A stretch of 64,000 bases of DNA, taken from positions 76,800 through 140,799 of IMG/VR virus record IMGVR_UViG_3300042384_000211. One strand, given 5' to 3'. Numbering within the stretch: position 1 is the stretch's first letter; each line of letters starts with the position of its first letter. Under the pieces are notes generated by a model, which did no database searches, was not told the origin of the DNA, and was given only the letters and a program-made list of their open reading frames with translations. The position numbers and the translations under genes were made by a program. Shown here in pieces: positions 3,757 through 59,144 of this stretch. Source of the DNA: a virus.

Positions 3757-3806
3757 ATAGGTTTTTTTAATTGTATTTTTTAATGACCGCAATAAGTTTT
3801 GTTTAT
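3757..3806. promoter_or_regulatory. OxyR-type box upstream of ahpC
   Basis: ATTG-N7-TAAT-N7-ATAA-N7-TTAT (3770-3806) plus ATAG-N7-TAAT (3757-3771); minus-strand TATAAT at 3719-3724 with a poor -35. Confidence 0.65.
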
Positions 3807-3837
3807 AGGTTATGAAGTAACAATGATAAATAACTGT

Positions 3838-4305
3838 ATGAAACATATACATCACATCTTACCTCAATACCTAGGCGGCACTGACGATCCTAGTAACCTA
3901 ATAGAACTTACTGTAGAAGCTCACGCAGAAGCGCATCGCTTATTATACGAGCAACACGGCAATTGGCAAGACTATTGTGCGTGGCAAGCATTGTCCGGAC
4001 GTATTGGGCAAGAAGAAATATTAAGGATGAAACAAGGTATGGCTAATAAAGGTAGAAAGCGTACACCAGAACAGATTGAAAATATTAAAGCAGCCGCAAG
4101 GAAACGAGTCGAAAGACATCGCGCTGATGGTACATTAGAACGTGCAGCTATTAAGCAAAGTGCATCAATGAAGGGAAAAGTAAAATCTGAAGAACATATA
4201 GCTAATTGGGCGGCTAGTCGAAAAGGGCATGCGGTATCTGAAGAAACACGAGAAAAAATAAGAAAGACATTAGCAGAAACTAGAGCCAATAAAAAAGCTC
4301 TATAA
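3838..4305 (+). mobile_element. Free-standing HNH homing endonuclease with NUMOD3-type repeats
   Basis: HIHHILP..LGGTDDPSNLIELTVEAHAEAH; basic repeats such as SEETREKI; ATG 3838 lies 5 nt after ATAAATA. Confidence 0.85.
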
Positions 4306-4316
4306 AAGAGCTTTTA
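4291..4316. terminator. Bidirectional terminator between the HNH gene and pqqA
   Basis: AAAAGCTCT-ATAAA-AGAGCTTTT inverted repeat. Confidence 0.7.
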
Positions 4317-4333
4317 TTATCATGTGTTAAATC

Positions 4334-4405
4334 TTAACGATTCATTACATAAAGAGTCACTTCAAAACCGAAACGCATTTCTGTTGCTGCTGGTGTAGTC
4401 CACAT
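4334..4405 (-). CDS. pqqA: Pyrroloquinoline quinone precursor peptide PqqA
   Basis: Manual translation MWTTPAATEMRFGFEVTLYVMNR (23 aa); W..P.....R.GFEVTxY signature with the Glu-X3-Tyr pair; AGGAG RBS 7 nt upstream; terminator downstream. Confidence 0.95.
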   Translation of the reverse strand: MWTTPAATEMRFGFEVTLYVMNR

Positions 4406-4552
4406 AATAATTCTCCTAGATAAAAGTCTAAAACAACGTTGTGTTGTTACTAGTACTTATACATATAATAACACCAATATGGCCTAAATAACATACGTAA
4501 AATCATTAAAGACCGATAATTTTCTTGCGATTAGTTTAGATTGCTATATCTG

Positions 4553-4726
4553 TTATTTTTTCAAACACTGTGCGTGTACTTTAAATGTATCAAATTTTAA
4601 CCAATAGGTCAATGATTGTTTAGCATCTTCACATTGCGTTTCATTGGCAAATTCAAGTGTAACCTTGCCCGGTATATCTTTTGGGTCAGTTATGTTTACC
4701 ACTAGTATCAATAGTATCCAACTCAT
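4553..4726 (-). CDS. Small hypothetical protein with hydrophobic N-terminus
   Basis: MSWILLILVV start overlaps the upstream stop as ATGA. Confidence 0.65.
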   Translation of the reverse strand: MSWILLILVVNITDPKDIPGKVTLEFANETQCEDAKQSLTYWLKFDTFKVHAQCLKK

Positions 4727-5490
4727 TGGATTATGTGATTCCAGTAGACTATAGCCCAACGCCCATCGTCGTGTTCAACAAGCGCACTACAACTTTCTAC
4801 CCAGTCACCATCGTTCATATAGATCATACCGTTGGGCATGTGTTTGATTTCCGGAGTATGTATATGTCCGCAGATTACACCATCGTATCCACGTTTGGCC
4901 GCATAGTCAGTTAGATTAGTTTCAAATTTAAATACAAAGTCTATTGCTTTCTTAACTTTATGTTTGAGATACTTACTAAGACTCCAATAGCCAAATCCCA
5001 ACTTACTTCTGCAGTAGTTAAAATAGTTGTTAAACCATAAAGCTACATCGTAGGCCTTATCACCTAAAAATCCAATCCATGGTGCTAACCTAGTAATACC
5101 ATCAAACATATCGCCGTGTGTAATTAGAAACAATTCTCCATCTACACTGCGATACTCTGCTTGATTAACAATACGTATACGGCCTAGACTAAAATGATGT
5201 TGTACCAGAGGACGGAGGAATTCGTCATGGTTACCGGTCACATAGGTTACATTACATCCTCGTTTACTGTAGCCTAGTATTCGTCGAATAACATTAGTGT
5301 GCGATTGTTTCCATGCCCACTTGTTCTGTTGTATCTTCCACCCATCAATGATGTCACCTATTAGGAATAGATTATCACAGGTGTGATGTTTGAGAAAGTT
5401 ATTCAGCAATTCAGCTTTAGCATCTTTAGTGCCAAGGTGAAAGTCAGATATACAAATTGTTTTGTATCTAATTAAGGGAACAGTGACCAT
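4723..5490 (-). CDS. Metallophosphoesterase, PlcP/LpxH2-like phospholipase C
   Basis: SDFHLG, GDIIDGW, GNHDE, HGDMFD, GYWSLS, GHIH, NDGDWVESC motifs typical of the PlcP/LpxH2 group. Confidence 0.8.
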   Translation of the reverse strand: MVTVPLIRYKTICISDFHLGTKDAKAELLNNFLKHHTCDNLFLIGDIIDGWKIQQNKWAWKQSHTNVIRRILGYSKRGCNVTYVTGNHDEFLRPLVQHHFSLGRIRIVNQAEYRSVDGELFLITHGDMFDGITRLAPWIGFLGDKAYDVALWFNNYFNYCRSKLGFGYWSLSKYLKHKVKKAIDFVFKFETNLTDYAAKRGYDGVICGHIHTPEIKHMPNGMIYMNDGDWVESCSALVEHDDGRWAIVYWNHIIQ

Positions 5491-5561
5491 ATGCCAATGG
5501 CCGCCATGATCGCTAATATACCACTAATTTCTTTTACAGCTTCTATAAAAATCTCAAACAT
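5472..5561 (-). CDS. 29-aa membrane peptide
   Basis: Manual translation MFEIFIEAVKEISGILAIMAAIGIWSLFP; AGGA RBS; fills the porin-phosphoesterase gap. Confidence 0.55.
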   Translation of the reverse strand: MFEIFIEAVKEISGILAIMAAIGIWSLFP

Positions 5562-5572
5562 AGTTTTTCCTA

Positions 5573-7000
5573 TTAGAAGTTGTACTGCAATTGCACACGT
5601 AGGGCATCTGCTTTAAAGTTAGCATAGTCTTGTTTTGCTATTGTAGTAGCAGTTGCTCCTGTTACTAAATTGCTACGGTTCATCATATGATAGTAAGCCA
5701 CAAGTTCAACTTCTGGAGCAATTTGCCATTCAGCTCCTATCTCCCAATCGTTAACCTTGTTCATCGGTGAGTTAGTTTCTGCTTTTGACGCACCATCAAA
5801 GTATTGCCATCTAACAAATGGAATTAAAGTACCATTAGTATCTAACACTTTGAAGTTGTCAATCTTATACATAGTTTGAATGTAGCCACCGTTTAAGTTA
5901 GTTTCTTTGATAATACCATCAGTGCTAGCAGTAGTATCTAAGCCAGGAGTTTTACCCCAGTTCCACTCACCTTGTAGACCTAATGGCTGTGGGTACATCA
6001 TAAAACTTACACCCACACGTTGATCTTTAAAACCAGTTGTGTTGCCTGCTTCTAATGTTGGTGTTTTAGTTGCGTAAACATTGTTGCCCATATTTTTTCT
6101 ATATGCACTACCTGTTCTTACATACTTGCCCGAGTAACCTTGTACACCAGCTTCGTAGATTTGACCGCTTTCGGTTTTCCATGGGTAAGTAGCACGTGCC
6201 ACAACGTGGTAGTTGTCATTACGATCTTGTTGGTTAGCACCTTGACCATTATAAACACCCAAGGCAACCATACCGTAGTTACCCGAATGTTTTAAACCGC
6301 CGTCTTGAATTTCTTTAAAGAGCTTTTGAACGTTGTCCGGTGTGTAGTAATAAAACGCACCCAAATCACGCTCGTCACGTACTGCACTATTAAATGCGTC
6401 AGCGCGATCAAGTGCTAGACGATTTTGTGAAGATTGTAAGTTTTCAAAGCCATATGGTACTTTACTTTGTCCAACACGAACGCGGTGTACTTTGTCTTTG
6501 GTCAAGTTAACATCACCATAAGCATCACGCAGTTGCGCTACGTTACCTGTGGTACCTGCTGTACTAGCAAAGTCAGGTTGAATATAATAATCCAAACGCT
6601 CACCAGCTGAACCAGAAATGATCACACGTGCTCGACGGATAAGAAAGTTTTTGTCTTGATCAGCAAGAGAGTTTTTATTACCTACAGATCGATCTGACCA
6701 AAGGTTGACTCCTTCGTCACCACTAAGCATAGTAGTATTGCGCACTTGTAAATAGCCACGAATGTTCATTTTACTAGCCGCATGTACAGTGGTATCTTTT
6801 TCTTTTTTAACTGCGCCTATTTCACCAGTATGGCCTTTGTTTAGCAGTGCGCCTTCTTCTTCTGTAAGTACACCTTTCATAACCAGTGCATTAACAATGT
6901 CTGTGGTACTGTCTGCGTGAGCTTGTTTTAATCCTGCCATTGATAGTGCAAATGCTATTACTACATAATACATTATTGATTTAACTTGTTGTATGGTCAT
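5573..7000 (-). CDS. Phosphate-selective porin (OprO/OprP family)
   Basis: Signal peptide, FLIRRAR, RDAY, RVGQSKVPYGFENLQSS..R..LDR, RDLG; C-terminal Phe. Confidence 0.85.
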   Translation of the reverse strand: MTIQQVKSIMYYVVIAFALSMAGLKQAHADSTTDIVNALVMKGVLTEEEGALLNKGHTGEIGAVKKEKDTTVHAASKMNIRGYLQVRNTTMLSGDEGVNLWSDRSVGNKNSLADQDKNFLIRRARVIISGSAGERLDYYIQPDFASTAGTTGNVAQLRDAYGDVNLTKDKVHRVRVGQSKVPYGFENLQSSQNRLALDRADAFNSAVRDERDLGAFYYYTPDNVQKLFKEIQDGGLKHSGNYGMVALGVYNGQGANQQDRNDNYHVVARATYPWKTESGQIYEAGVQGYSGKYVRTGSAYRKNMGNNVYATKTPTLEAGNTTGFKDQRVGVSFMMYPQPLGLQGEWNWGKTPGLDTTASTDGIIKETNLNGGYIQTMYKIDNFKVLDTNGTLIPFVRWQYFDGASKAETNSPMNKVNDWEIGAEWQIAPEVELVAYYHMMNRSNLVTGATATTIAKQDYANFKADALRVQLQYNF

Positions 7001-7409: not shown

Positions 7410-8621
7410 TTAGAAGAATAAGATAGCACCTGCTGATACTGAACGTGATTTACCTTCTGCACCGTTTTGTGCTTCTGATTTAACGTCTGAGTATTCAGCA
7501 ACTAAGTTCACGTGTTTTGTGAGTGGGTGATAAGCACCAACAGTCCACATTTCGTTTTTCGAAACTAAAGCTGTAGCTGTTTCGCCACTGTTACGATCTA
7601 ATTTACTTTGACCATAACTTAGACCAAGTTTGGTAGCAGTAGGCAATGTGTATGTACCTTGCACGTAGCCGCCATTTGAATCACGACGTTTACCTGTAGC
7701 ATCAAAGCCGTCTAGTAATTGTAGTGAACGGCCAATACCTTTACCATCAAAGTAGTAAGCAGTTAACCCGTATGGACCAGCAGACAAGTTTGTACCAACG
7801 TCCCATGCATAAGCACGGCTGTCGGCGTTAGCACCAGATAGGCCTTCAACTTTTTGTGAAATAGCACTTGACCAAACTTTAGCAGCAATAGGGCCTGCTA
7901 GTGAGTAAGATACTTTACCTTCGAATGCTGGTTGAGCGCCGCCACGTCCTGTTGAAGTAGCTGAAGCAGCTTGTACACCTGCTGTTACTGCATTTAAGTC
8001 AGCTGTTTGAGCATTCCATGCTTGTGTTACACCAGCAGTGAATTGGAAGCCGTCGAAGTTTGGTGATGTGTAGGCAACTTGTGATTTCCAGTCAGCGTAC
8101 ATATAACCAGTCCCAATACGACCTAACGTTGTTGTGTTACCAGCTAGTGCACCAGCGCCTGCACCAACACCCAGCAATGTCATGTCGTTAAGGATTGCAT
8201 CAGAAGCGTAGATACCTAAATCTTTACCTAGTTTTACACTACCCCATGATTTATCACCGATGGTTAAGAATGCTTGACGATTTTCTTGGTTAGCTGTTTG
8301 AATACCGGCTTGTGTTGTAGAAGCACCCGGATTGATAGCAATTGTAAAACCGATGTCTAGATCATTTTGACGTGACTTACCAGAAACTGATAATACGTTT
8401 GGTAATAAACCAGTTGTGATATTTGATTCGTTACGTTGACCTGTAGCATTAGGTCCACCTAGACCACCAACTACTGCACTGCCTGTGCCGCGTGTGTTTG
8501 TGTAGTAAGCGTTTACAACGCCACCGATGTCTAGTGTCCAATCACCAGCTGGAATTTGAATGCCAGCGTGAGCAGTTGAATACATACTTGCTAATAATGT
8601 TGCTAATAATAATTTCTTCAT
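7410..8621 (-). CDS. Gram-negative general porin
   Basis: MKKLLLATLL signal peptide after an AGGAG RBS (start 8621 preferred over 8651); WGSVKLGK, YTSPNFDGF; C-terminal Phe. Confidence 0.88.
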   Translation of the reverse strand: MKKLLLATLLASMYSTAHAGIQIPAGDWTLDIGGVVNAYYTNTRGTGSAVVGGLGGPNATGQRNESNITTGLLPNVLSVSGKSRQNDLDIGFTIAINPGASTTQAGIQTANQENRQAFLTIGDKSWGSVKLGKDLGIYASDAILNDMTLLGVGAGAGALAGNTTTLGRIGTGYMYADWKSQVAYTSPNFDGFQFTAGVTQAWNAQTADLNAVTAGVQAASATSTGRGGAQPAFEGKVSYSLAGPIAAKVWSSAISQKVEGLSGANADSRAYAWDVGTNLSAGPYGLTAYYFDGKGIGRSLQLLDGFDATGKRRDSNGGYVQGTYTLPTATKLGLSYGQSKLDRNSGETATALVSKNEMWTVGAYHPLTKHVNLVAEYSDVKSEAQNGAEGKSRSVSAGAILFF

Positions 8622-8668
8622 TACGATACTTCTCCTTTTATTGGATAACACTAATATGTTATACTATC

Positions 8669-15188: not shown

Positions 15189-15653
15189 CTATTTTTCGAA
15201 TGAAATTGCAACCTTTTGTCTAACTGGCTCAGGTATAAATTGAACCAATTTAACTGTTAGGATGCCATTTTTAACGTGCGCTGAGTTGACTTCTACTCCT
15301 TCAGCAAGTTTGATACGTTTGACAAAATCACGAGCAGCGATACCACGATGAATGTACTCTACTGGATTTTCGCGTAATTCTTCAAATGCCTCTTCTAAGC
15401 TAACTTCACGGTTAGTGCCACGGATAACTAATTCACCGTTTTCGATTTCTACATCTAATTCGTCTTCAGCAAAACCAGCTACTGCTAGTTCAATAGCGTA
15501 GTTATTTTCGTTTAGTTTAATTAGATTAAACGGTGGGTAGCCACTGTCCTTACCACGTTGCTCTAAGTGTTGCAGTTGTGCAAACAAATCATCAAAGCCA
15601 ATAGCAAATTTATAGATGCTAGGGATATCAAGGGTTGTGTAAACTTGTTTCAT
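15189..15653 (-). CDS. Small heat-shock protein (Hsp20/IbpA-like)
   Basis: YPPFN, IELAVAGF, YIHRGIAARDF, NGILTV. Confidence 0.95.
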   Translation of the reverse strand: MKQVYTTLDIPSIYKFAIGFDDLFAQLQHLEQRGKDSGYPPFNLIKLNENNYAIELAVAGFAEDELDVEIENGELVIRGTNREVSLEEAFEELRENPVEYIHRGIAARDFVKRIKLAEGVEVNSAHVKNGILTVKLVQFIPEPVRQKVAISFEK

Positions 15654-17572
15654 TATTTACTCTCCTTGTTAACTTCTGTGAATTCAGCATCCACAACACC
15701 ATCTTGCGCATCCGTTGGTGTCTGCTGACCCGGCTCAACTGTTGCTGACTCTTGTGCTTGTTTAGCTTGGTAGATTGGTGCTACTGGTTCTGCTAATTTT
15801 ACCATTGCTGATTTAATTGCTTCTGCATCATCACCTTTAATGGCTTCTTCTACAGCGGCAATAGCATCATTGATTGCAGTATGTTGTTCAGCAGTTACCG
15901 AGTCACCAGCTTCTTCTACAGTTTTCTTAACATCGTGAACCTGTGCTTCAGCTTGGTTACGTGCATCAACTAATTCACGCAATTTTTTATCTGCATCGGC
16001 ATTAACTTCTGCATCCTGTACCATTGCATCAATTTCTTCTTCAGTTAAACCTGAGTTAGCTTTGATAGTAATCTTGTTTTCTTTGCCAGTTGCTTTATCT
16101 TTAGCACTTACTTTTAAGATACCATTAGCATCAATGTCAAGAGTAATTTCAATTTGTGGTTGACCACGACGTTGCGGTTCGATACCTTCTAAGTTGAACT
16201 GGCCAAGTACTTTATTGTCTTTGACAAACTCACGCTCACCTTGTGCTACCATAACAGTAACAGCTGGTTGATTGTCCTCTGCTGTAGAGAATGTTTGGCT
16301 TGCTTTGGTAGGAATGGTTGTATTTTTCTTAATCAGCTTGGTCATAATACCACCCATTGTTTCAATACCCAATGATAGTGGAGTTACGTCTAGTAACAAT
16401 ACATCAGTTTTATCGCCGCCTAGTACAGCACCTTGAATAGCCGCACCGACTGCTACAGCTTCATCTGGGTTAACGTCTTTACGTGGAGCCTTACCAAAGA
16501 ATGCTTCAACAGCTTCTTGTACTTTAGGCATACGTGTTTGACCACCGACTAAGATAACATCGTCAATGTCACTAATGCTAATACCAGAGTCTTTAACAGC
16601 AATCTTACATGGATCAATTGAACGTTTGATTAAATCTTCAACTAGACCTTCAAACTTGCTACGTGTTAGTTTAACTGATAAGTGTTTAGGACCAGTAGCA
16701 TCAGCAGTAATGTATGGTAAGTTTACATCTGTCTGTGTTGAACTTGACAATTCAATCTTAGCCTTCTCAGCTGATTCTTTAAGACGTTGTAAGGCCAGCA
16801 TGTCTTGTTTTAAGTCAATGCCAGATTCTTTCTTAAACTCGTCTACCAAGTATTCCATAATACGTTGGTCAAAGTCTTCACCGCCTAAGAATGTATCACC
16901 ATTAGTTGACAATACTTCAAATTGTTTTTCACCGTCGATGTCACTGATTTCAATAATACTAATATCAAATGTACCACCACCTAGGTCATACACAGCAATC
17001 TTACGGTCTTTTTTATCACCTTTATCGCAACCAAATGCTAGTGCAGCCGCAGTTGGTTCGTTGATAATACGCAATACTTCTAAGCCTGCAATACGACCTG
17101 CATCTTTAGTTGCTTGACGTTGGCTGTCATTGAAGTAAGCAGGTACTGTAATAACTGCCTGCGTTACACTGTAACCCAAATAGTCTTCTGCTGTTAATTT
17201 CATTTTGCGCAGAACTTCTGCTGAAATTTGTGGAGGTGCTAGTTTGTCACCGTTGACTTCGACCCATGCATCACCATTTTCGTTTTTAACGATTTTGTAT
17301 GGCATTAGGTCAATGTCTTTTTGTACTGCTGGCTCGTCAAACTTACGACCAATTAGTCGTTTGCTGGCGTAGATTGTGTTTTTTGGATTAGTAACTGCTT
17401 GGCGTTTAGCACTAGCCCCCACAATGATTTCATCGCCGTAGGCAACGATACTTGGTGTAGTACGAGCACCTTCGTTATTTTCAATTACACGTGATTTATT
17501 GTTTTCAAGAATTGCGACGCAACTATTTGTAGTTCCAAGGTCTATGCCCAGAACAGGTGATTTTCTTGTCAT
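15653..17572 (-). CDS. dnaK: Chaperone DnaK
   Basis: [37 protein letters not shown]; start at ATG 17572 after an AAGGAG RBS. Confidence 0.98.
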
Positions 17573-17651
17573 ATATTTCTCCTTTAAGTTAAGCAAGAAT
17601 AAATTAATTACGAACCCTATTATAGGCATTCGTATTACTATTTATCATTAA

Positions 17652-18470: not shown

Positions 18471-18707
18471 TTAATAAAGTTTTGCTGGTAAGTGTTGGCT
18501 AGATAGTTTCTTTTTCCAACGTTGTTTTGCAGCTGCTTTTTTGCGTTTTTTAGCCACAGTTGGTTTTTCATAAGATTCGCGATCACGCAATTCTTGTAAC
18601 AATCCAGAATCTTGAACTTTCTTTTTTAATTTACGAATAGCTTGCTCTACGTTGTCGTTTTTAACGTAAACAGTGCATCCATAGACTTGTGTATTATCGA
18701 GTGACAA
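18471..18707 (-). CDS. rpsU: Ribosomal protein bS21
   Basis: VYVKNDNVEQAIRKLKKKV..SGLLQELRDRESYEKPT..KKRKKAAAKQR. Confidence 0.92.
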   Translation of the reverse strand: MSLDNTQVYGCTVYVKNDNVEQAIRKLKKKVQDSGLLQELRDRESYEKPTVAKKRKKAAAKQRWKKKLSSQHLPAKLY

Positions 18708-56259: not shown

Positions 56260-56729
56260 AGCTCGGCTTTGATTTGCTTATCGTCAAGTCCAAGTTCTCT
56301 TGCCAGGCGTTCAATATCTCTTTTATCATTTATTTGCGCTAACAGATCAATTTCATCTTGTTTAAGGGTTGGATATAATTTTGCTAAAAACTTCTGTGCT
56401 TTGTTATTGCCTTCTTTCTTTTTAGTACCTTGCCAATAATGATGTTGCTTGCCCATTGCAGGACTAACTGAAGTGCATAATAACCATTGTAGTTTAGGAT
56501 GCTTGTTTAGATCAAAGAAATTTTTGTTTACACGATCATTGGTGGCCATTAGATAATATGCCTGTAGATCACTTGATCCAGCAACACTAGCACCATAGCG
56601 CAACATTAGATATGTACTGAACTTTTTCTTTTCTTCATCAGTAAACTTGTCATAGTATGCACGATCTTTACGATCAAATGCTGCCATTTCATTACCAATG
56701 TAAAGTGGATCGTTATAGTCTACAGCCAT
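56256..56729 (-). CDS. Probable clamp-loader small subunit (T4 gp62-like)
   Basis: Size, YLMLRY..S and KHPKLQW patterns, replication context; weak call. Confidence 0.5.
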   Translation of the reverse strand: MAVDYNDPLYIGNEMAAFDRKDRAYYDKFTDEEKKKFSTYLMLRYGASVAGSSDLQAYYLMATNDRVNKNFFDLNKHPKLQWLLCTSVSPAMGKQHHYWQGTKKKEGNNKAQKFLAKLYPTLKQDEIDLLAQINDKRDIERLARELGLDDKQIKAEL

Positions 56730-56965
56730 TATTTGCCTTTGCGTAGGTAGTTAAGCATTTGATTAACGCTCTGTTGCATATCAGCGTACTTGCTTTTTAG
56801 GCTTTGTATTTCTGCATGTTGTTTGTCTACCAGATGCATTAATCGTTCAAGCGTTATAGTTTGTTCGCGTAGTTTTTTGTCTTGACTTAGTAGGTTAGGG
56901 CGAGGCGGAGCATTAGGATCTACCGCACGTTTTTTCTTTTGTTTAAATTGTAGTGGATTAAACAT
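56729..56965 (-). CDS. Hypothetical coiled-coil protein
   Basis: Operon-coupled ORF. Confidence 0.65.
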   Translation of the reverse strand: MFNPLQFKQKKKRAVDPNAPPRPNLLSQDKKLREQTITLERLMHLVDKQHAEIQSLKSKYADMQQSVNQMLNYLRKGK

Positions 56966-57173
56966 CTTTATATTCCTTGCTTAACTTATATATCATTATA
57001 GCATGATCTAGTACTGATTGTAAAGCGATATTTGTTTCAGCAGCGCGACGAATTTCTCCCCACATTTTACTGTCCATTAGATGTTCACGCAACGGACGGC
57101 CATCATAGGTTCTAAGGTCTATATCTTCGTACATCATGTCATCTGTAATTAAGTCAGGATTAATTTCTACCAT
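56958..57173 (-). CDS. Hypothetical protein
   Basis: Operon-coupled ORF. Confidence 0.65.
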   Translation of the reverse strand: MVEINPDLITDDMMYEDIDLRTYDGRPLREHLMDSKMWGEIRRAAETNIALQSVLDHAIMIYKLSKEYKDV

Positions 57174-57667
57174 ATTTTACTGTAGTCCACTACTTCGCTT
57201 TGACGACTGATATCTTTGATAAAATAAGCACATAAAGGATTTTCGCCTTCTGTGATAGGCACTGCCAACATCTGTCCGGGTTTAAGTTTAGGAAAGTACC
57301 ATTTAACATCTTGGTAGATGTCTACAATCTCAATTGGATGAAACTCAGGTTTATAGCTGCCCATTGGGTTAAATGCAAACACACTAAACCCACGATCGTT
57401 GATTGATGTTAAAGGAATGACTTCCAAATCACCAAAGTCTGGCTCACCAATAAGCACCTGCCAGTCCACAGGCATTTTTACCAAATTACCACCAATGTTT
57501 AATACCAGTGCCGGACTGTTAAAACTTTCTAAGAAAATAAGTGGAATAAAGAAGTAGTCTGGATTCTTTGGATCACTGTTGTCTAAAATAGCAAATCGTA
57601 GATCATCTACCTCATCAGGGATCTCGTTCATTTCGTACGCGGTGTTTTCTAAGGTGAGGATGTGAAT
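57167..57667 (-). CDS. Hypothetical protein, probable ATT start
   Basis: AAGGAG-7nt-ATT CAC ATC CTC is in frame with the track ORF at 57631. Confidence 0.65.
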   Translation of the reverse strand: MHILTLENTAYEMNEIPDEVDDLRFAILDNSDPKNPDYFFIPLIFLESFNSPALVLNIGGNLVKMPVDWQVLIGEPDFGDLEVIPLTSINDRGFSVFAFNPMGSYKPEFHPIEIVDIYQDVKWYFPKLKPGQMLAVPITEGENPLCAYFIKDISRQSEVVDYSKIW

Positions 57668-57686
57668 TTTAATGCTCCTTGATTAA

Positions 57687-59144
57687 TTATTTCCATTCTG
57701 TTTTTTCTATTGCATAAGGATATGAGGCCTCGGAATAGAATTTCTTTCTGACTGTAAGATGCCGTTTAGCAAACTTACAAGTTGATGTTACGTCCCAGAT
57801 TTGGACGAAGTCCTTGTCTTCCGCTTTGCGAATGCCACGTCCGATACTCTGGATGACTCTAACAAAAGATTTACCAGGCTCAATGAGCACAAGGTTAAAA
57901 ACACGAGGAATATTGATGCCGACAGCAGCAACACCATAAGTGGCAACAGCAACAAAGTTATCACTGGTTGCAAACTCATCATAACTGTCTTTTCTATCAT
58001 TTGCTTTTGTTCCTCCTGATACAAACACTGCATCTTTGACCAAGTCAACTAATGCCTTGCCTGGAGCAATTCTATCAACTAATACAAGTGTGTTGCCAGT
58101 TAATCTAATACGCTCTATCATTTTACTTATGTAATTGATACGACTATCGGTCTCTAATAGATATTTTAACTCGCTTTGATAATCTTTATATTCAACGTGA
58201 TCAATTAGTTGTACAACGTTTACGTGACAGTTAGCAAGTACACCCTGGTCTTGTAATTCGCTGGCACTTAATCTGCCTAATACCTCACCTAATGAACACT
58301 TTAGAGCCATAAACTCGTACATTTCTTTAGGTATTGTACCAGTTAAGCCCCACCTAATAGGAATGTGTGCCATAACACTAGTAAGTAGTGTTTTAAGTGC
58401 ATCTGCTTTGGCCATGTGTACTTCATCAACCATTACACAAACAACACCTTCTAAAAATTCCATTATGGTAATGTCTGCTTCGTGTGCTTTGGTATTTTTA
58501 AGCAGGATGTTTAGACTTTGCCAAGTACAAATAGTATGTGTATGTCCAAACTCTTTACGGTCGCCAAAGTACACGCCAACATCTAGGCCTAGGTTAATAT
58601 AGTCTGCTTCAGTTTGTGTAACTAAACTTTTGTTCGGTACAATAACAATGGTACGACCATGCGGTTCGCAACTCCAACTCAATGCGGCTGTGATCAGTGT
58701 TTTACCTGCACCCGTGGCAATCTCCTGTAGACATTGTGGGTTGGCCAAGAACTTGTTGATAATTTCAATTTGATAGTCACGTAGCACCACAGGTTCGCCT
58801 GCAATAGGATGTTTAGCAGGCCATACTTTGTGTGCAAAGGTTTCTTCTGTTACTTCTGTAAACTCAAACTGTGTAGGATAATCACGCAGATCATCCAACT
58901 CAATATCATACCCACGTTCATCTAAGTAGGGCAAGATCTCTGGTAGTAGGTTAGTATATGTGCTACCACCTAACTGAGCGTAGGCTATTTTGCCATCCCA
59001 TCGGCCTAAACGAACTGCTGGCAAGTAACGTGCACCTGGAATTTCGTATTTGAATTTATTAACAAGATACTTTCTATCGTGTAAATCTAATCCAATTAAT
59101 TTACAGTTAACTTCGTCTTTGATTTGTATTATACACTTTGCCAT
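57687..59144 (-). CDS. Superfamily 2 DNA helicase (UvsW-like)
   Basis: LRDYQ, ATGAGKT, DEVH, GLTGT, QSIGRGIR. Confidence 0.93.
   Translation of the reverse strand: MAKCIIQIKDEVNCKLIGLDLHDRKYLVNKFKYEIPGARYLPAVRLGRWDGKIAYAQLGGSTYTNLLPEILPYLDERGYDIELDDLRDYPTQFEFTEVTEETFAHKVWPAKHPIAGEPVVLRDYQIEIINKFLANPQCLQEIATGAGKTLITAALSWSCEPHGRTIVIVPNKSLVTQTEADYINLGLDVGVYFGDRKEFGHTHTICTWQSLNILLKNTKAHEADITIMEFLEGVVCVMVDEVHMAKADALKTLLTSVMAHIPIRWGLTGTIPKEMYEFMALKCSLGEVLGRLSASELQDQGVLANCHVNVVQLIDHVEYKDYQSELKYLLETDSRINYISKMIERIRLTGNTLVLVDRIAPGKALVDLVKDAVFVSGGTKANDRKDSYDEFATSDNFVAVATYGVAAVGINIPRVFNLVLIEPGKSFVRVIQSIGRGIRKAEDKDFVQIWDVTSTCKFAKRHLTVRKKFYSEASYPYAIEKTEWK

Follow-up and report, generated by a model that had tools for sequence, protein, structure and literature searches.

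A large tailed phage, probably of methylotrophic Methylophilaceae, with a stand-alone pqqA gene

Introduction

The cyanophage psbA gene is a host-derived gene for a turned-over component that sustains the energy metabolism of the host; it is maintained by purifying selection, and in T4-like phages genes of this kind are sometimes flanked by homing endonucleases. The pqqA gene of phages differs from psbA in that its product is a consumed 23-residue substrate, not an enzyme or a structural subunit, and relies wholly on host enzymes.

In PqqA, the glutamate and tyrosine of an E-X3-Y pair are cross-linked and excised to give PQQ, and one PqqA is consumed per PQQ. The N-terminal leader of the peptide, with a conserved Trp and Pro, is the region recognised by PqqD, and PqqD/PqqE act on this leader and on the Glu/Tyr pair. 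The Methylophilaceae, including the LD28/Methylopumilus group of lakes and the OM43 group of coastal seas, are major methanol consumers and use a PQQ-dependent dehydrogenase for energy. From 3 to 12 pqqA copies and a single pqqB-G set have been reported for this family (PMC4109929).

A viral PqqA was described in T4-like Methylophilaceae viruses of Lake Baikal (VP_266), for which a role in PQQ and methanol oxidation was proposed (Coutinho et al. 2020, Microbiome 8:163, PMC7678222), and viral pqqA was listed among phosphorus-cycling genes in a 2026 sediment study. The original prediction for the DNA analysed here, which took viral pqqA to be undescribed, was therefore mistaken on this point. 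As the basic idea of a viral pqqA was already in print, the gain of the present analysis lies in breadth, host specificity, selection and the correction of annotations, not in a new principle. The present contig contributes a large phage that shows affinities to jumbo phages and has its pqqA inside an island of host-like genes.

The locus resembles Baikal VP_266 (PMC7678222) in its stand-alone PqqA, its large T4-like contig, its predicted Methylophilaceae host and its reading as an auxiliary gene. A cytidylyltransferase was noted there, and one adjoins pqqA in relatives of the present contig. The Baikal contigs carry methanol dehydrogenase, whereas none was found in the present 141-kb fragment, a likeness and difference drawn from the published description. 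The cultured Methylophilales phages (P19250A, Venkman, MEP301, MEP401/402 and Melnitz) have peptides 73-91% identical to the present one, with their own Shine-Dalgarno (SD) sequences and without pqqB-E. They differ in belonging to other lineages and in genome size (35-141 kb) and local gene context, and the helicase of the present phage is nearest to those of jumbo phages.

Identification of the pqqA gene

The 64-kb window, by which the whole stretch of DNA analysed here is meant, is the final part of a 140,799-bp linear IMG/VR record. The gene and its surroundings were located in the window as follows.

4334-4405, minus strand: pqqA coding sequence, 23 codons and TAA, with profile matches and with purifying selection among viral copies
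4413-4417, minus strand: Shine-Dalgarno sequence AGGAG, 7 nt before the pqqA ATG
4406-4552, minus strand: upstream intergenic region of 147 nt, between pqqA and the ORF at 4553-4759
About 4288-4321, minus strand: hairpin followed by a U run, a putative intrinsic terminator (-12 kcal/mol, z -2.45 against shuffled sequences)
3799-4305, plus strand: HNH/homing-endonuclease-like gene (phrog_655, 4.2e-19), convergent with pqqA, whose 3' end it adjoins
4723-5490, minus strand: metallophosphoesterase gene (LpxH-like), upstream of pqqA on the same strand, with a 69% identical homologue in another pqqA-bearing viral contig (L112)

The ORF at 4334-4405 is a genuine and intact pqqA gene. Its coding part (4337-4405) starts with ATG, the TAA stop occupies positions 4334-4336, and the exact reading of the minus strand is MWTTPAATEMRFGFEVTLYVMNR. 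The peptide scored 37.9 bits against the Pfam PqqA profile PF08042 (cut-off 21.1, E 1.7e-9) and 37.1 bits against NCBIfam TIGR02107 (cut-off 20), and both profiles were matched along their full lengths, which bore out the predicted PqqA peptide on this strand. When the whole 140.8-kb contig was searched in six frames, this single copy was returned with an E value of 4.3e-9 (34.6 bits), so the match is far beyond chance. The length of 23 residues falls within the range of PqqA peptides (about 20-40 residues). The E-X3-Y pair is present as Glu15-Val-Thr-Leu-Tyr19, and the W-x2-P of the leader as Trp2 and Pro5.

The exact sequence of the phage peptide was absent from a collection of 15 billion proteins, and a PDB sequence search with it gave no match. 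It shared 21 of its 23 residues with the commonest Methylophilaceae PqqA, the only differences being M18L and K23R. Position 18 was Met in all 129 sampled host copies and position 23 was Lys in most of them; the combination Leu18/Arg23 occurred in none of the 129.

No pqqB-E genes were detected in the window, as had been predicted, or in the entire 140.8-kb contig, and no methanol dehydrogenase or PQQ-dependent alcohol dehydrogenase gene was found within that contig, both absences applying to a fragment that CheckV estimated to be 40% complete. A genomic link of pqqA to pqqBCDE was likewise missing from the fetched flanks of at least 227 viral loci, none of which held pqqB-E. This does not exclude membership of the PqqA family, since at least 68 orphan copies of the hosts were unlinked as well.

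Sequence signals around pqqA

The AGGAG ribosome binding site, the free upstream region and the downstream terminator of the original prediction were all recovered at the positions given above. An SD-like motif also preceded pqqA in each of the 119 viral copies of the first IMG/VR sample. A simple terminator scan called a different hairpin, neighbouring or overlapping the first one, at 4302-4281. The terminator hairpin of pqqA extends into the 3' end of the convergent HNH gene and, judged by this arrangement, may be bidirectional.

The ORF at 4553-4759 (minus strand, 68 codons) ends 147 nt before pqqA. Its sequence is protein-like and shares 37 nt with the 3' end of the phosphoesterase gene; a profile search with it gave no family match.

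The upstream region of pqqA contains a -10-like TATAAG at 4456-4461, and a sigma-70 promoter scan near pqqA found nothing above the shuffled expectation. At 4494-4508, TAATGATTTTACGTA was a weak half-match to a palindrome that lies upstream of host pqqA genes. The weight matrix of the host palindrome likewise gave a weak match at the locus that was not significant, about 0.16 such matches being expected by chance. The consensus of the palindrome was TCTnATGAAAATCATTAG. It was located about 124 nt upstream of host pqqA in 73 of 119 host copies, as against 5.6% of control windows, and upstream of viral pqqA in 41 of 115 copies, as against 11.6% of controls. Among the relatives of the contig it preceded pqqA in 10 of 18; viral examples are the loci L036, L069, L070, L097 and L132. 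From this distribution, the palindrome looks like a putative site for a regulator of pqqA that was kept by some phages.

A different arrangement was observed at eight viral loci (L041, L046, L050, L073, L076, L078, L093 and L127), where the stretch 40-90 nt before pqqA contained a TGnTATAAT box and, after it, a leader hairpin. The stem of this hairpin carried compensatory changes between contigs (GTAGA/TCTAC, GCAGA/TCTGC, TTAGA/TCTAA and TTGGA/TCCAA). Rfam assigned no family over the pqqA leaders of eight related loci, and at gathering thresholds it returned nothing on the 64-kb window. The leader hairpin before phage pqqA may be a new cis-regulatory RNA. Some lineages may keep either the upstream operator of the host or a structured leader, so that pqqA might still be under control of the host type.

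Viral nature of the contig

The pqqA locus is viral. Upstream on the contig, several long-tail-fibre and tail-fibre-assembly proteins are encoded together with a 1222-residue virion structural protein, GroEL, a Clp-type protease and a DNA ligase, and downstream of pqqA there are genes for Hsp70, ribonucleotide reductase, a pectate-lyase-type tail protein and two helicases. The DnaB-type helicase of the contig was 45-50% identical to those of the jumbo phages PA5oct, Atu_ph07 and XaC1. One strand carries 165 of the 199 ORFs, and the GC content is even throughout (0.35-0.42).

At least two proteins were shared between the contig and each of 18 IMG/VR loci from other metagenomes, and pqqA was present in all 18. 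The proteins common to the related loci included the cyclase, rpoZ, AhpC, phosphoesterase, HNH, Hsp20, a clamp loader of the gp44 type, cytidylyltransferase and ribosomal protein S21.

Between 289 and 13409 of the window the phage carries an island of host-like genes, several of which recurred in related viral contigs. Besides rpoZ and a CHASE2 adenylate cyclase, it comprises the genes for AhpC, a small class I cytochrome c, the phosphoesterase, two porins, a curlin-repeat protein, FecR and CsgG, and the HNH gene lies among them. The cyclase was a full-length match to phrog_35576, rpoZ exceeded the cut-off of TIGR00690, and AhpC was above its own cut-off.

Joining of host DNA to the phage had been named as a concern with the original prediction. 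An artefact of assembly or binning would mean that pqqA and the host-like genes were bacterial DNA attached to a phage contig, or the host flank of a prophage. Cellular-looking neighbours such as rpoZ, AhpC, cytochrome c, two porins and the CHASE2 cyclase would fit this explanation, and at least one GenBank 'phage' record with a pqqA match was plainly bacterial and carried the full pqqABCDE operon. However, a host flank or a mis-binned contig was rejected, as phage structural and replication genes stand on both sides of the locus, the helicase is jumbo-phage-like, and the 18 related viral loci all carry pqqA. The GC content and strand bias are continuous along the contig, and the same host-like genes accompany pqqA on other viral contigs, where their proteins are 45-85% identical to those encoded here. 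A porin of the island was only 60% identical to that of the closest tested host, and no integrase was seen among the ORFs scanned around pqqA.

The extent of nucleotide similarity to bacterial loci also argued against a chimera. It was limited to 4341-4418 (up to 91%) and extended to 4285, through the terminator, in two MAG loci (labelled only Pseudomonadota), so that similarity to host pqqA stops at the edges of a cassette of 80-135 nt. The acquired unit was therefore an RBS-ORF(-terminator) cassette and not a stretch of chromosome, and an artefact was considered extremely improbable.

The assignment of the contig to a Melnitz-like phage, for which the curli genes, a tmRNA note and a size near 141 kb were considered, was unsupported: the genes next to pqqA are arranged differently in Melnitz, and the top helicase matches listed came from jumbo phages.

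The Methylophilaceae host

Host copies of pqqA were searched in GTDB genomes with a degenerate DNA pattern for the core EMRFGFEVTxY, which returned at least 120 matches. Nearly all of the matches listed were from Methylophilaceae, with the genera Methylotenera, Methylophilus, Methylobacillus, Methylovorus, Ca. Methylopumilus, Novimethylophilus and Pseudomethylobacillus. The two commonest host PqqA peptides were also the two commonest viral ones, and one of them is publicly named 'MULTISPECIES PqqA [Methylophilaceae]' and is found on hundreds of contigs.

Among the sampled host copies with viral-type peptides, 26 adjoined pqqB or were linked to the operon, and at least 68 were orphans. Together with the published copy numbers (PMC4109929), this agreed with the expectation that Methylophilaceae carry extra stand-alone pqqA copies very like that of the phage. 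Five genomes had 3-7 pqqA genes each, one pqqE and XoxF-type dehydrogenases, and the hosts carry several PQQ-dependent dehydrogenases. An auxiliary gene is expected to have a host homologue in a defined pathway, and pqqA has one in the likely host.

The phage copy is like the orphan copies of the hosts in length and in forming a lone RBS-ORF-terminator unit away from pqqB-E. It differs in its location on a phage rather than a chromosome, in Leu18/Arg23 and in its weak match to the palindrome TCTnATGAAAATCATTAG.

In the streamlined genome of Ca. Methylopumilus universalis (1.3 Mb), pqqA genes were located at 416138, 457444 and 1186267 and pqqE at 578485, none of the pqqA genes being near pqqB-E. 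Because all of them are distant from pqqB-E, the PqqA supply in this organism comes from orphan genes, in the same layout as the phage copy.

The phage porin encoded at 7410-8651 was 60% and 57% identical to the products of two loci of Ca. Methylopumilus universalis, and the best of the remaining matches in 301 genomes sampled from the class reached 46%. Weak matches in two unpublished genomes were given no weight. These comparisons make a member of the Methylophilaceae the most likely host of the phage, with Methylopumilus the closest genome tested, in agreement with the methylotroph of this kind that had been predicted.

Occurrence of pqqA in other phages

The search of viral collections proposed with the original prediction was carried out with tblastn and with sequence patterns. 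Among GenBank phages, tblastn located an intact pqqA in P19250A (91% identity), a Manatee Spring podovirus, MEP301, Venkman, MEP401/402 and four Melnitz isolates, each with its own SD sequence. Every cultured Methylophilales phage returned by the phage-database search had an intact pqqA. In the Baikal study (PMC7678222), phage P19250A was said to encode none of the genes concerned; for pqqA, this is contradicted by the intact, unannotated gene.

In the records of P19250A (KX815270, 28085-28153), MEP301, Venkman and MEP402, no feature is annotated at pqqA. In those of Melnitz (MZ577097, 76100-76195) and the Manatee Spring podovirus (MW202481, 2067-2195), a hypothetical ORF on the wrong strand covers the gene. 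The isolate papers for MEP301, MEP401/402 and Melnitz do not mention pqqA. Two records of 'Acinetobacter phage MD-2021a' (CAKLQF020000010 and CAKLQH020000055) were rejected as phage pqqA, being bacterial chromosome with ppk, pqqABCDE and membrane dipeptidase.

The IMG/VR collection was scanned with the general pattern W-x2-P-x3-[DE]-x-R-x-G-x-EVT-x-Y, which gave at least 120 contigs. A second scan with a sub-pattern that covered 11% of the first sample added at least 107 further contigs, for at least 227 distinct contigs with pqqA. The total number of such contigs in IMG/VR probably exceeds 1000. The strict YVMNK type of Methylophilaceae accounted for 186 of the 226 viral ORFs listed, the remainder also having RFGFEVT. 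The Pseudomonas and Acinetobacter types of PqqA were almost absent among the viral matches listed, though the pattern would have accepted them.

The first 120 viral contigs were clustered by shared neighbours and fell into several unrelated groups. The largest, of 67 contigs, included P19250A, Venkman, MEP301 and the Manatee phage; another had 19 members, 18 contigs grouped with the present one, and several groups were small.

Selection on viral pqqA

A check proposed with the original prediction was for synonymous-only variation among phage copies. Purifying selection was found in the viruses, as is expected of an auxiliary gene. In 109 distinct DNA versions of viral pqqA, dN/dS was 0.10 when all codons were counted and 0.21 when the count was limited to the ten that the search pattern left free; pS was 0.58. 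The Glu, the Tyr and the leader W and P were present in every recovered copy, but the pattern required all four, so this constancy adds no separate support. Of the five other reading frames, four were interrupted in 40-95% of the sequences, whereas one antisense frame was open in 94 of 109 and had a dN/dS of 0.30, above that of the sense frame. The low dN/dS, the nearly saturated synonymous sites and the SD motif in 119 of 119 copies favour selection on a translated peptide and disfavour a DNA-level element.

These values bear on the explanation of pqqA as a neutral passenger or a by-product of mobility, according to which the gene is kept as a target of recombination or homing, or is often picked up, with no metabolic benefit. 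The cassette is tiny, the hosts supply 3-12 donor copies, and in the window and the viral loci L117 and L089 the 3' end of pqqA is adjoined by an HNH-like gene whose orientation differs between them. The conserved pqqA DNA might be a target site of the product of that adjoining gene. However, a pS near saturation beside the low dN/dS and the invariable SD points to selection on translation and not on DNA identity, and pqqA persists in several unrelated phage lineages, mostly without an adjacent HNH gene. A neutral passenger was therefore judged very unlikely.

The HNH-like homologues in question (63-66% identity) lie at 2580-3053 in L117 and at 1717-2190 in L089, where they are in tandem with pqqA; in the window the two genes are convergent.

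Proposed role of the phage PqqA

This genuine pqqA resides on a large tailed phage, most likely one infecting Methylophilaceae, and we consider it likely that its peptide feeds the PqqD/PqqE/PqqB/PqqC of the host, sustaining PQQ synthesis and methanol oxidation. We infer here the expression of the gene, the processing of its product into PQQ and the benefit to the phage. In the proposed sequence of events, the PqqA supply of the host would be the first thing lost when a phage degrades or silences the host DNA. The phage pqqA would then replace the lost template, the peptide being made in the infected cell and passed to the host's single set of PqqD/PqqE/PqqB/PqqC. As no pqqB-E genes were found on the phage contig, the peptide would most likely be handed to the host enzymes. 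PQQ synthesis would continue as host transcription declines, and the PQQ-dependent methanol dehydrogenase (XoxF/MxaF) would stay loaded with its cofactor.

Two properties of the system bear on the choice of PqqA as the supplied component. Because one PqqA is used per PQQ, an extra template would keep PQQ synthesis running, and since the Methylophilaceae multiply only pqqA within the pathway, the template is suggested to be the limit of supply. PQQ is, on the other side, a stable and reusable cofactor, so that a supply limit within a single infection cycle is not obvious. The published growth medium for OM43 includes 1 nM PQQ, an amount that could hide an effect of the phage gene. It is also assumed that the host PqqD/E use the phage peptide, as Leu18/Arg23 was unseen in 129 host copies and the exact sequence was not in the collection of 15 billion proteins.

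The same Leu18/Arg23 lineage, with none of the sampled host copies sharing it, could suggest another role, either as a decoy tying up PqqD/PqqE or in making PQQ for another quinoprotein or for redox protection. The genes for AhpC and a c-type cytochrome, no more than 1.6 kb from pqqA, hint at a redox theme, and the hosts have several PQQ-dependent dehydrogenases. Most viral copies, however, are identical to the commonest host peptides, which would be senseless for a decoy, and Leu is found at the corresponding position of the working PqqA of Klebsiella. A role of this kind was held to be very unlikely. Neither a chimera, nor a passenger or homing target, nor a decoy matches the pattern of selection and the recurrence as well as the feeding of the host PQQ pathway does.

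A broader reading makes pqqA the signature auxiliary gene of phages that infect methylotrophs of the Methylophilaceae type, present in at least five unrelated lineages and encoding a consumed 23-residue substrate, with the PqqA template and not the PqqB-E enzymes limiting PQQ in infected cells; the chances for and against it were weighed as about equal. If methylophages routinely bring PqqA, the supply of a cofactor precursor would be a control point of infected-cell metabolism, and the phage would be a rare case of a virus that supplies a consumable substrate instead of a catalyst. The 69-nt gene, which is missed by gene callers, could be used as a host marker for uncultured methylotroph phages. 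The pqqA annotation of the reference genomes of P19250A, Venkman, MEP301, MEP401/402, Melnitz and the spring podovirus needs to be corrected.

Other observations

The hsp20 gene of the window lies at 15189-15653, where Rfam at gathering thresholds gave nothing. In relatives of the contig, ROSE_3 RNA thermometers were located before phage hsp20, at 1445-1510 in L093 and 4506-4572 in L078, with 54 and 52 bits (gathering score 43).

The set of chaperone and proteostasis genes of the phage was unusually full. It included Hsp70 and ribosomal protein S21, at 15653-17629 and 18471-18707 of the window, and GroEL and a Clp-type ATP-dependent protease, at 56716-58335 and 4471-6780 of the 140.8-kb contig.
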